42,480 nt of DNA from Escherichia phage EC22.5-2. The notes below the pieces were generated by a model. That model had not been told where the DNA came from and searched no databases. It was given only the letters and a program-made list of their open reading frames with translations. Numbering within the stretch: the stretch's first letter is position 1; each line of letters begins with the position of its first letter. The stretch is from sequence record OR845139; one strand, given 5' to 3'. This document shows, piece after piece, positions 35,256-42,293 of this stretch. The position numbers were made by a program, and so were the translations under genes.

Positions 35256-36179
35256 ATGGCATACAGCTGGCAAGAGTCGGTAAAGCCTGCAGGTACACAG
35301 GATATTCAGTGCGATATCGAGTATCTGGATAAGTCCTATATTCACGTTTATTTAGATGGTGCTGAGACTACTACCTTCACTTGGACCAGCGCCACTAATA
35401 TTCGTCTGAACTCCCCACTGTCCGTAGAGACGGTTGTGCTCCTCATTCGTAAGACTAAGCGAGAGTATCTCTACATCGAATTTGCTAGTGGTGCTCCTTT
35501 CATTGAAGGGAACGTAGATACCCAGAACACACAGTTTCTGCACCTGGCCCAAGAGCTGGTTGAGGGGCGTTCTATCGAGGGTTTCTACGGGGATATTAAC
35601 ATGCACCGTTACCGCATCACGAACCTGGGAGGCCCAGTAGATGCACGGGACGCTGCAAACAAGCAGTATGTCGATGCCGGTGATGCCCGGCTAGACCAAC
35701 GCATTGATGCAGAGGCTGCCGCACGTAAAGCTGCGGACGATGCCTTGAGTATGCGTACTACCGCTCTGGAAAATACCTTTATAAGTGGTGTAGAAACGGT
35801 AAGTTATCCGTGGAGCACAGTCCTTACGGAAGAGACAGATGAGGTGACTCCAGGACTGAAGTTCACTAAGGCTATAGTAGAACTTAATGGGGTTGGGCAG
35901 ATTCGCGGCTACAGTTTCGAGATTGTGGACAATACTATACTGTTTGCCGAGACCCTTGCTGCTGGAACTGTCGTAGCTGCCCGATTAGGTGCTGACGTAA
36001 CTGCGGGAGATGGTTTCGCTACACAAGCATCTGTAGACCACTTGGCCCACTCATTAGGAGATTTGGCATACTTAGACAAAGCCGAAGCTGTAGCTGATGC
36101 TACCGGTGCTGGGGATGTGGTAAATCAACTAAACGCACTGCTAGTGGCCCTACGTGCCAGCGGGGTGCTAGCATCCTAA
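35256..36179 (+). CDS. Tail fibre protein (T7 gp17-like N-terminal adaptor domain)
   Basis: 307 aa from ATG 35256 (ggaga RBS); located after the internal virion proteins; short length suggests an anchor or adaptor. Confidence 0.6.
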   Translation: MAYSWQESVKPAGTQDIQCDIEYLDKSYIHVYLDGAETTTFTWTSATNIRLNSPLSVETVVLLIRKTKREYLYIEFASGAPFIEGNVDTQNTQFLHLAQELVEGRSIEGFYGDINMHRYRITNLGGPVDARDAANKQYVDAGDARLDQRIDAEAAARKAADDALSMRTTALENTFISGVETVSYPWSTVLTEETDEVTPGLKFTKAIVELNGVGQIRGYSFEIVDNTILFAETLAAGTVVAARLGADVTAGDGFATQASVDHLAHSLGDLAYLDKAEAVADATGAGDVVNQLNALLVALRASGVLAS

Positions 36180-36191
36180 CAGGAGGATCAT

Positions 36192-36494
36192 ATGGCAGGG
36201 GCGGCTAAACGTAGTCGCCTCTCGGAGCTGCACCGCATGTTCACAGAGGCTTTGATTGAAGAGATCAAACAGTCTAAAGAAGATGAGGTGCCGCTCCCGG
36301 CCGCAGATAAGTCAGTCATCGCTAAATTCTTGAAGGATAATGATATCACTGCGGATGCAGATTCCGAGGAGATGCAGGACCTACGAGATGAGTTCGATGA
36401 CGAACTATCCGCGCGCAGAGAGGCGCGTAAGAAAGAGATTTTAAACAAGATTAGTGGTTCAGACTCTGAGGACTTACTAGAAGGAATTGTCTAA
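36192..36494 (+). CDS. Terminase small subunit (DNA maturase A)
   Basis: 100-aa charged protein directly upstream of and coupled to the large terminase gene. Confidence 0.55.
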   Translation: MAGAAKRSRLSELHRMFTEALIEEIKQSKEDEVPLPAADKSVIAKFLKDNDITADADSEEMQDLRDEFDDELSARREARKKEILNKISGSDSEDLLEGIV

Positions 36495-39571: not shown

Positions 39572-40154
39572 GGTTATAGCTGCACTCGCCGGGGCCACTA
39601 TGCTCGGCGGGGCTATTACTGAGGTAATCCAGCACAATGAAGGTTTGAGCCTTACAGCCTACAAAGATAGTGCTGGTATCCCTACGATCTGCTACGGGGA
39701 GACAAAGGGTGTCAAAATGGGCCAGAGAGCCACTCTGAGCGACTGTCAGAAGCAACTGATAGAATCAGCAGGGGAACATGCTAAGGCTCTTGACGGGCTT
39801 CCTATGCAGCTCTCTGACGTGGCTCTGATAGGGTCTGTAGACTTCATCTATAACGTAGGCGTAGCCGGCTTCAATGGCAGCGCCGTGAAACGGCACCTCA
39901 AAAACCTTGATTATGCAGCGGCTGGAAAGGCTGTGCTGGACTGGCGTTACATTAGCAAGTACCAGCAGAAGTCCCCAGGCACCGGTTGGGTGTACAGGGG
40001 TGGTAGCCGCTGGACCTTTGACTGCTCTCAGTATATTAATGGGCAGCGCAATAAAGTGTGCTGGGGCCTATGGGAGCGCCGTGTGTGGGAATCTAAGGCT
40101 ATAGGGAACGAATTTAAATCAATGCAAGCAGCGGTTGCTGCTATGCCTAAATAA
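39555..40154 (+). CDS. Endolysin, GH24 lysozyme (T4 lysozyme-like) with N-terminal SAR-type signal anchor
   Basis: Catalytic triad spacing E-8-D-6-T in NEGLSLTAYKDSAGIPTICYGET; N-terminal RARVIAALAGATMLGGAI is hydrophobic and Gly/Ala-rich. Confidence 0.8.
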   Translation: MSLRARVIAALAGATMLGGAITEVIQHNEGLSLTAYKDSAGIPTICYGETKGVKMGQRATLSDCQKQLIESAGEHAKALDGLPMQLSDVALIGSVDFIYNVGVAGFNGSAVKRHLKNLDYAAAGKAVLDWRYISKYQQKSPGTGWVYRGGSRWTFDCSQYINGQRNKVCWGLWERRVWESKAIGNEFKSMQAAVAAMPK

Positions 40155-40169
40155 CTTCAGGAGCATCAG

Positions 40170-42293
40170 ATGCAGGAACTTGTTAAACCTTATACTACGG
40201 GAATTATGCACCGGGCTGAGGTACTTAGCGATTACCTTGACGGGCTTACCATACCTAAGGTAGGGCTATTATCTAAGTTTGAACGTATAGGTCCGGAGTC
40301 AGATGACACAGGGAGGCTGCAACGACTGCACGCATACGCTAACGCTAATAACGTACCTGTAGTGTATGACGTAGCTCAGAACCTGTTAGTAGATGCTAAG
40401 GCAGATATCCCTGTACATACTTCGGTAGACTTCGGAGGTTGTGTACTCATACCGGTATTTACCGCTACCCCTGATTACGACTACACCCCGGTATTCCGCA
40501 TTAAGGGTAAGAAAAGTATTAACGTAAGTGATCAGCTGGATAAGGCAAGTATGCGCAAAGGCGAGCTGGCACTGTACGGTAACATGCGTGCATATCATAA
40601 GGGTACTTTCTGGGTTAACTCGGATGCAGCATTCTGTAAACGCGCTTACTCAGATGCCGCCCCTAACTACTACAAGTCCAGTATTGGCCGTATTACTAAA
40701 AATGGGGCGCTCCAGTACCCGTTAGAACATGACTTTAGTACAGCTACTACAGTTACTGCATGGTTCCGTCCAGACGAAACTGATTGGCTTACTATCACTA
40801 ATCTCGGCATAGACACCTCCAACATGCTGTCAGGAGTTGTATTTAAAATTGAGCGTTCACAGGTTACAGTTAAGGACCTGTGTGTACAACAACTAAGTGC
40901 AGTGCCGGTACAGAATATTCGTCACATGGTATTCGTAGGTGAAGGTGTAAGTCAGATTAACTTCGACAACATCTCAGCCGAAGGGATGTCTGCATTTTAC
41001 GCTGACCAAGGTACTTATGTCATCGGAGGAAACTACTGCTGTCAATTAAGCATCTCCAGATTCACCGCGCTACAGGGGTTTGGATGCATAGGTTTTAATA
41101 AGACACGGGATCTTCGCGTTACCGATAGTACCTTGAACCGTATTGATGGACATTACCATATCTATGATGTTATGGTTACTGATACAGTTATGCATGAGTT
41201 CGGAGTGTACATCGGGATGGGAGGCGGCTACCTCAAGCTGGATAATGTGCATAGATACATCGGAACGATGACTGACTATAAGGATGCGGTATCTAACCTG
41301 GTATACCCTATTCGCCTCAGCATGGTGTTCATGCGTCCAGATTACGGGGATTACTTTGACGGAAGTATGTCTGTTACTAACTGCACCTTAACAGTGGGGA
41401 GGGATATTTCATTCCCTAACGCAACTGAGAATGCCCCGGCAGTAATATCCTGTATCAGCTTTAACGCTGGCGCGAACTTCGGTAGCGGCAGCACTACTGG
41501 CGCGGACTTTGGATACTCTCAGAGCGTACCTTGGGGCACCAGCATTACCATTGATAACTTCAAAGTATCACTGCTTAGAGAGGGTGCTTATGGTGCCTGG
41601 ATTACGGTGTGTGGTATTAACTACAACCGTAAGTGGGTGCTCCCTTCAGTAACCTTCCCAGGTAATATCACTGTCCGTAACATCGGATATAATGCCACAG
41701 TGCAACAGGCTAAAGTAACTCCGATTATCTTCCCGGACTTGCTGCACACAATTAGTACTGTAATCCCCAGCAATAAGCGTTTCCGTTGGAACAGTATTAT
41801 TGATATCTCAGATATTGCCAGTGGGTTTGTAGATAGCCGAGCCAGCTTTGGCAGCTTAGGCGCTACCAGTCTGGACGCACTGTATAGTATGTCAGACATA
41901 GAGCAGTTCCCTGCTGATGCAGTAGTTCCACGTATCAATGTAAGAGGGTTCTACGGCTTCACTGGTAAGTGGACTATCCCAGGTCAGTTGAACATTCAGG
42001 ACAGTATGATTCTCGGTATCAGTGACATCAGTTCAGGCAGACATCCTGACTGCTGGTGCACTATCAAGGATTCTACAATCTATCCTGTAGTAGCTCCAGG
42101 GGGTGCAGTATCTGTTCTTCCACGGGCCCAGTACAGCAATACGCGTTTCATTAACTCTGGAATCGCCCCTAATCTTACTAATGCAGACTCTGTGCAGGGG
42201 TGTACCTTTGAGAACGGTGTTACCCCTATTGGTGTAACTACGCTGGAAGCCTGGACTGGGGTCGTTAAGGACGGTGCCGGACGCTTAGTGTAA
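40170..42293 (+). CDS. Tailspike protein, candidate polysaccharide depolymerase
   Basis: 707-aa last gene after the lysis cassette (the KP34-like depolymerase position); aggag RBS; catalytic fold not confirmable by eye. Confidence 0.5.
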   Translation: MQELVKPYTTGIMHRAEVLSDYLDGLTIPKVGLLSKFERIGPESDDTGRLQRLHAYANANNVPVVYDVAQNLLVDAKADIPVHTSVDFGGCVLIPVFTATPDYDYTPVFRIKGKKSINVSDQLDKASMRKGELALYGNMRAYHKGTFWVNSDAAFCKRAYSDAAPNYYKSSIGRITKNGALQYPLEHDFSTATTVTAWFRPDETDWLTITNLGIDTSNMLSGVVFKIERSQVTVKDLCVQQLSAVPVQNIRHMVFVGEGVSQINFDNISAEGMSAFYADQGTYVIGGNYCCQLSISRFTALQGFGCIGFNKTRDLRVTDSTLNRIDGHYHIYDVMVTDTVMHEFGVYIGMGGGYLKLDNVHRYIGTMTDYKDAVSNLVYPIRLSMVFMRPDYGDYFDGSMSVTNCTLTVGRDISFPNATENAPAVISCISFNAGANFGSGSTTGADFGYSQSVPWGTSITIDNFKVSLLREGAYGAWITVCGINYNRKWVLPSVTFPGNITVRNIGYNATVQQAKVTPIIFPDLLHTISTVIPSNKRFRWNSIIDISDIASGFVDSRASFGSLGATSLDALYSMSDIEQFPADAVVPRINVRGFYGFTGKWTIPGQLNIQDSMILGISDISSGRHPDCWCTIKDSTIYPVVAPGGAVSVLPRAQYSNTRFINSGIAPNLTNADSVQGCTFENGVTPIGVTTLEAWTGVVKDGAGRLV

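Follow-up and report, generated by a model that had tools for sequence, protein, structure and literature searches.

The window analysed here is the whole of sequence record OR845139 (42,480 nucleotides, nt), from Escherichia phage EC22.5-2, and it is a complete podophage genome of the genus Drulisvirus (KP34-like) in which every gene lies on the plus strand, the strand to which all features and coordinates below refer. Our account of how this phage recognises its host, which taken as a whole we consider probable, is that it uses a two-part apparatus consisting of an adaptor of 307 amino acids (aa) and, docked upon it, an exchangeable lyase tailspike of 707 aa that sets the host range. A trimeric adaptor, in the 'anchor-branch, first RBP truncated' mode (RBP, receptor-binding protein), would be fixed to the tail by its T7-gp17-like N-terminal domain and would present a branching domain, on which the product of the last gene would dock via a short N-terminal peptide. 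The docked spike, a trimeric right-handed beta-helix, would bind a host surface polysaccharide, the likeliest candidate being an acidic capsule or O-antigen of E. coli or of a close relative, and would cut it by beta-elimination at a site comprising Tyr283, His328 and Arg389, letting the virion work down to the outer membrane; its gene would be an exchangeable unit, bounded by the stop codon of the endolysin on one side and by the conserved right end of the genome on the other, and would hence determine host range. The architecture itself is known, from KP34 gp49/gp57 and from K1-5 gp37/gp46, and needs no new explanation. What is new is a rare, uncharacterised, lyase-like receptor-binding module, and the pairing of a KP34-type adaptor with a docking peptide of the K1-5 gp46 type.

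Both genes are well defined. The adaptor open reading frame (ORF; 35256-36179) begins with ATG, has GGAG 8 nt upstream and encodes 307 aa; the ORF of the terminal tailspike, or second RBP (RBP2; 40170-42293), begins with ATG, has AGGAG 7 nt upstream, encodes 707 aa and is the last gene, with 187 nt remaining 3' of it that include a 77-nt copy of the left end of the genome. A sequence-only reading of this DNA had already picked out this pair, a short fibre and a separate last gene after the lysis cassette of a KP34-like phage, and both the genes and the kinship were borne out. KP34 is 84% identical to the window at the nucleotide level across 35256-40079 and shares its gene order from gp49 to gp57, as do around 250 Drulisvirus records; megablast of the region against 50,697 phage records matched 255 of them and placed it in this genus. 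The same reading had spoken of two receptor-binding proteins, a description that suits the 707-aa protein, a likely binder, and does not suit the 307-aa protein, an adaptor in which domain searches gave PF03906 only and no enzymatic domain.

By homology the 307-aa protein is a truncated anchor-branch adaptor of the kind that characterises group A KP34viruses (PMC6872550, PMC13352976). It is identical to KP34 gp49 at 254 of 307 residues (83%), matches the tail-fibre family phrog_2710 (2.5e-112) and has a near-identical counterpart of the same length among solved structures ('tail fiber gp9', PDB 23sh_r, E=2e-165); further solved relatives are 8es4 Gp44, 8vbx gp47 and the 7y22 'tail adaptor protein'. 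PF03906, the T7 gp17 N-terminal tail-attachment domain, covers residues 11-140 (E=1.4e-14), and the adaptor-family profile (A3) matches the N-terminus of T7 gp17 itself (7boz, 2.3e-8). KP34 gp49 has been described as a truncated first RBP, with an anchor at aa 14-142 and, at aa 186-242, a T4gp10-like branching fragment that serves as the docking site of the true RBP (Latka 2019; PMC6872550), and these boundaries put the tail-attachment anchor of the EC22.5-2 protein at about aa 14-142 (35295-35681) and the presumed branching fragment, the putative docking site of the tailspike, at aa 186-242 (35811-35981). The latter assignment is by homology to KP34 gp49 only, to whose branching region it is nearly identical; T4 gp10 itself was not among the matches when the A3 profile was searched against the PDB. 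Phage-level tests of the pairing between a branching domain and a conserved peptide were made in KP32, and the KP34 branching domain is described as similar (PMC13352976, PMC8262889).

The sequence-only reading had proposed that the terminal protein is a tailspike or depolymerase and had named the right-handed beta-helix as the fold to look for. Structure prediction gives such a helix with high confidence, and the best structural matches of the protein are phage tailspike depolymerases, not non-structural proteins. An AlphaFold2 monomer model built on an alignment of 91 sequences (A2) has a predicted local distance difference test score (pLDDT) of 89.7 and a predicted template modelling (TM) score of 0.90, with only residues 1-33 below 50; a first model, built on a shallow alignment of 18 sequences, reached a pLDDT of 55.7 and was discarded. 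The top Foldseek match of the model is 8x8m (E=9.5e-19, TM 0.63), the capsule depolymerase K64-ORF41 of Klebsiella phage SH-Kp 152410 (PDB 8X8M/8X8O; Huang et al. 2024), which is grouped with the K1 lyase NTUH-K2044-K1-1 ORF34 (7W1C) and AP22 gp54 (4Y9V); later matches include the K1 lyase, LKA1 gp49, P560dep, AP22 gp54 and KP34 gp57. A phmmer search with the single 707-aa sequence gave no match in the PDB; the family profile finds 8X8M by sequence as well (E=5.3e-43; hhalign 99.6%), and K64-ORF41 is the only homologue of solved structure that can be detected in this way. The two proteins thus have in common a parallel right-handed beta-helix that is homologous in sequence. They differ in their mounting, K64-ORF41 being a first RBP with its own T7-type anchor in a Przondovirus and the EC22.5-2 spike a second RBP with a docking peptide, and in the 13-18% identity between them, such that the substrate-binding surface is surely different and the K64 specificity is not transferable.

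A review lists K64-ORF41 among the beta-eliminating lyases, with Tyr528, His574 and Arg628 of a single chain as its catalytic residues (PMC11652154, citing Huang et al. 2024). In two alignments these residues fall on Tyr283 (codon 41016-41018), His328 (41151-41153) and Arg389 (41334-41336), with spacings of 45 and 61 residues as against 46 and 54 in K64-ORF41. All three are invariant in the close-family alignment (A1); in the wider alignment A2 the tyrosine and the arginine are conserved in at least 90% of the sequences and His328 is the sole invariant column, while the motifs LNRxDGH and RxDYG around the triad are strictly conserved across the family. From this alignment and conservation we predict that the tailspike is a polysaccharide lyase acting by beta-elimination, and such chemistry would imply a receptor that contains uronic acid.

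The prediction has to be weighed against a different chemistry within the same architecture, in which the spike would be a glycoside hydrolase of the endoglycosidase kind and its target a neutral O-antigen. KP34 gp57 itself is listed as a hydrolase with Glu266 and Glu300 (PMC11652154), differing in this from the lyase triad predicted here; it has no detectable sequence in common with the EC22.5-2 tailspike and resembles it in general fold only (Foldseek E=2.7e-4 to 8BKE). Some features of our own case do count against a lyase: its only characterised relative is about 13-18% identical, so that its chemistry is extrapolated from a remote homologue; the triad was placed by alignment of sequences and not by three-dimensional geometry; and the 707-aa protein matches no Pfam or NCBIfam family. 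We nevertheless regard a hydrolase as unlikely, given that the sole homologue of solved structure detectable by sequence is a lyase, that the Tyr/His/Arg triad is exactly conserved, with the histidine unvarying among 91 sequences, and that lyase tailspikes directed at O-antigen exist, LKA1 gp49 being among the structural matches. Inactive beta-helix RBPs also exist, and a spike that merely binds its polysaccharide, having lost catalysis, is conceivable on that general ground; nothing specific to this protein favours it, the strict conservation of the triad and of both surrounding motifs speaks for a working enzyme, and we give the idea very little credence.

How the predicted lyase would be attached is suggested by its N-terminus. 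The first 26 residues (MQELVKPYTTGIMHRAEVLSDYLDGL; 40170-40247) form a putative docking peptide of the K1-5/K1E gp46 type, identified by local alignment, BLASTP and tblastn, and homologous to the start of the gene 46 product of K1-5-like Vectreviruses, that is, K1E gp46 (MAKLTKPKTTGLLHRDTVLATLLDNL) and the K5 lyase of K1-5 (MAKLTKPNTEGILHKGQSLYEYLD). Local alignment scores are 74 against K1E gp46 and 66 against K1-5 gp46, where shuffled sequences score 21+/-4 (z=12.7 and 11.5), and BLASTP against K1-5 gp46 finds 12 of 24 residues identical (50%, E=5e-5). When the first 46 residues were searched by tblastn against all phage records, the peptide occurred only at Met-1 of Vectrevirus gene 46; weak matches to Nodularia phages (E ~9) were taken as noise. 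The resemblance is confined to the peptide, and kinship of the spike body with the K5 lyase was rejected, there being no similarity beyond residue 24 except in fold. The gp46 heptapeptide of K1-5, MAKLTKP, has been reported to bind gp37 in the middle of that adapter (Leiman et al. 2007, cited in PMC6872550), and MQELVKP, the start of the EC22.5-2 protein, matches it at four of seven positions. The adapters are also related, since the EC22.5-2 adaptor is homologous over its full length to K1-5 gp37 (74 of 274 residues identical, 27%) and to SP6 gp38 (75 of 274).

The K1-5, K1E and SP6 system, with a gp37 adapter and gp46 and gp47 spikes (Leiman et al. 2007, as cited in PMC6872550), therefore resembles that of EC22.5-2 in its adaptor of about 300 aa, in having its tailspike genes downstream of the lysis genes, at the right end, and, for K1-5 and K1E gp46, in the first 24-26 residues of the spike. 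It differs in belonging to the Molineuxvirinae rather than the Slopekvirinae, in the C-terminus of the adaptor, which in EC22.5-2 is of the helical KP34 type, and in the number of spikes. EC22.5-2 has a single tailspike and no protein of gp47 type; the gp47-type undecapeptide MIQRLGSSLVK was found in none of the six frames of the window (best local score 36, unrelated), and the only ORFs of at least 300 aa after the adaptor are the large terminase gene and the 707-aa gene, leaving no other RBP candidate in the genome. Given the homology to gp46 and the want of any other RBP, the sequence is most simply read as that of a spike that would dock onto the adaptor by its N-terminal peptide, and we assume such docking here.

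Drulisvirus second RBPs have been defined by a different heptapeptide, MALxxLV (PMC6872550). From 55 Drulisvirus-like contigs of IMG/VR we recovered the gene that follows the endolysin, and in around 48 of the 55 it encodes a protein beginning in the manner of MAL[TIVSA]x[LIV]V, with a few variants (MLNLTKV, MNLVKAK, MEKLVVA and MTLVKTI); five of eight GenBank relatives begin MALxxL[VI]. Two facts are awkward for docking. The heptapeptide is absent from the 707-aa protein, which begins MQELVKP where the KP34 spike has MALTKLV; and the branching region of the adaptor carries no compensating change, being of the ordinary KP34 type found in phages with MALxxLV spikes. A single branching-region change is specific to the window, P to A in ETLAAGT, and the sister contig L001, introduced below, does not have it. 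Both facts speak for a rival reading in which the 707-aa protein, lacking MALxxLV, is not mounted on the adaptor at all but is released as a soluble depolymerase or attached to another tail component. We think this very improbable: the N-terminus is homologous to a peptide reported to bind gp37, itself a full-length homologue of the adaptor; the L-[TV]-K core of the motif, which is all that MQELVKP has in common with variants such as MLNLTKV, is kept; the lineage that carries the gene has been recovered independently, as an NCBI record and on at least nine Logan contigs; and with an unmounted spike the phage would have no receptor-binding protein. The survey also suggests that the docking heptapeptide of Drulisvirus is more variable in sequence than the published consensus. 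As a side observation, three of the IMG/VR contigs (L059, L049 and L079) encode spikes whose starts, MEKLVVA, MNLVKAK and MTLVKTI, resemble the core of MQELVKP.

The gene for this tailspike lies in a cleanly bounded cassette. In blastn comparisons with nine relatives, homology stops at 40079-40154 and restarts at 42352-42373, within the conserved right end of the genome, and megablast matches among the 50,697 phage records likewise end at about 40078-40152. The right-end sequence that forms the downstream bound (42352-42480, including the 77-nt repeat copy) is 80-93% identical to the right ends of KP34, AV102, ZH5, Minorna, KPV811 and AttikonH4. The terminal gene has a GC content of 46.8%, the genome one of 51.4%. 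From the homology boundaries and GC content it follows that the exchanged unit is the whole gene, N-terminus included, with short flanks (40155-42351), as expected for a host-range determinant, and as in KP34, where the terminal beta-helix enzyme is likewise an exchangeable host-range cassette.

As far as sequence comparison can tell, the tailspike cassette is rare and was acquired horizontally. The 707-aa gene has no DNA-level match by megablast in the 50,697 phage records, and none of the records of the INPHARED phage collection (August 2025) covers it; in the blastn comparison with relatives, only a Logan contig spans the cassette (L001, 94.7% nt identity), an independent 44-kb Drulisvirus contig whose 707-aa copy (P0001) is 97% identical. 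Protein searches also returned the exact protein, from the NCBI record of the window itself (P0166). An exhaustive search of 1.84 billion representative proteins yielded 238 relatives, of which more than 100 have in common residues 44 to about 360-410 and only about six clusters at 50% identity give full-length coverage. The receptor-binding module is therefore rare, and none of these roughly six clusters has been characterised.

The module itself comprises aa 44-707 (40299-42290) and consists, from homologue alignments and the secondary structure of the AlphaFold2 model, of a cap helix, the predicted right-handed beta-helix and a C-terminal beta-rich part. Its relatives with 38-48% identity, which are tailspikes of E. 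coli phages and prophages (P0002-P0016), of the Nouzillyvirus TH21 and of Providencia (P0017), align over residues 44-707 with catalytic and structural motifs invariant, and in all homologues with 45-48% identity the alignment runs from residue 44 or 45 to the end. Upstream of this point they differ from the EC22.5-2 protein and from one another, bearing the P22 head-binding domain PF09008, the CBA120-type PF18668 or the T7 fibre domain PF03906; one is encoded between ant and int in a P22-like prophage of E. coli, where it takes the position of the gp9 tailspike. Together with the EC22.5-2 spike they clearly form, on these alignments, one receptor-binding domain (RBD) family that has moved between P22-like, T7-like, ~47-kb and ~71-kb phages, within which, at 46% identity, receptor specificity may differ.

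Three pointers lead to E. coli or a close relative as host: the relatives of the backbone, those of the RBD (E. coli and one Providencia) and those of the docking peptide, which are E. coli Vectreviruses. Outside the cassette the genome is nearest not to KP34 but to E. coli-infecting Drulisviruses, AV102 (95%) first, then Minorna, phiHAO78-1 and KPV811. The host is thus probably E. coli, and more likely so than Klebsiella, because the nearest RBDs (45-48%) sit on tailspikes of E. coli phages and prophages with other N-terminal modules. The closest tailspike relatives occupy slots typical of O-antigen-specific E. coli tailspikes, and the substrate could be an O-antigen or a capsule. A link to a serogroup was sought in Pas et al. 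2023 and its supplements, in which neither phage TH21 nor Drulisvirus appears, and a paper on E. coli HS, with its Klebsiella-like capsule, proved to have no bearing on the question. A near copy of the prophage homologue is present in one of 5,426 complete E. coli genomes, in a record without serotype. In one E. coli genome two distinct prophage proteins contain the RBD, which fits a match to the surface glycan of that strain.

The combination described here may represent a natural Drulisvirus (Slopekvirinae) that joins three elements of different ancestry: an unmodified KP34-type adaptor, a docking peptide of the gp46 lineage (Vectrevirus, Molineuxvirinae), and a rare lyase module of P22-like, T7-like, ~71-kb and Nouzillyvirus E. 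coli phages. We hold this fuller claim with slightly less than even confidence. If the peptide does dock at the same branching site, that site on the adaptor would be cross-compatible between the two subfamilies, and nature would have supplied, in the first 26 residues, a connector ready for grafting tailspikes across genera; the enzyme, for its part, would add a new specificity to the polysaccharide lyases directed at E. coli. A tailspike gene that crosses podophage subfamilies with its docking peptide would be a natural case bearing on the 'plug-and-play' engineering of RBPs on KP32, KP34 and K1F scaffolds, and the cassette, cleanly delimited by the stop codon of the endolysin and by the conserved right end, is suited to host-range swaps in E. 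coli Drulisviruses. A rare module is also given a concrete enzymatic prediction, a Tyr/His/Arg lyase with a receptor containing uronic acid. The value of the observation lies mainly in this lead for enzymology and engineering, and not in surprise.

The nearest backbone relatives have a different apparatus. In AV102 (L004, 6666-8218) and Minorna (L005, 5668-7220) there is a 250-aa adaptor whose branching region resembles that of K1-5 gp37 (PPYRFTRATLYLDGV compared with PPYEFQDALVFLNGV); both phages have, in addition, two further small ORFs named 'tail fiber', and their terminal spike, of 506 aa, starts MLNLTKV. Adaptor types and docking peptides have therefore been reshuffled within the E. coli Drulisviruses. 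The adaptor gene of EC22.5-2 is itself a mosaic: identity to its closest counterparts among the E. coli Drulisviruses is only 75-84% over the 5' 425 nt (35256-35680), and 89-93% over 35682-40108, up to the endolysin.

The remaining genes of the region follow the arrangement of the group A KP34viruses (Latka et al. 2019, 2021, 2026), which runs from a gp16-like protein through the 307-aa fibre, the small and large terminase subunits, two small ORFs, a spanin, holin and endolysin to the terminal tailspike. After the adaptor come terS (36192-36494, PF11123) and terL (36494-38350, PF22530), then two small conserved ORFs (phrog_7128 and phrog_7375) and a u-spanin-like lipoprotein (38923-39327, phrog_1804), in which a lipobox (LTGC) and a C-terminal transmembrane segment indicate the u-spanin type. 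The holin (39320-39571, PF04971) is followed by an endolysin of lysozyme type (39555-40154, PF00959), with its stop codon at 40152-40154 and an N-terminal hydrophobic stretch (MSLRARVIAALAGATMLGGAI) that resembles a signal-arrest-release segment. Promoter and terminator scans of 35000-42480 did not rise above background (8 hits for a background of 7.6, and 6 for one of 5.0, respectively), and we claim no regulatory feature there. At the extremities of the genome, positions 1-77 are repeated exactly and in direct orientation at 42404-42480, with a run of G at the end of the repeat, which is either part of a direct terminal repeat or an assembly overlap; the annotated repeat of KP34 is 216 nt long.

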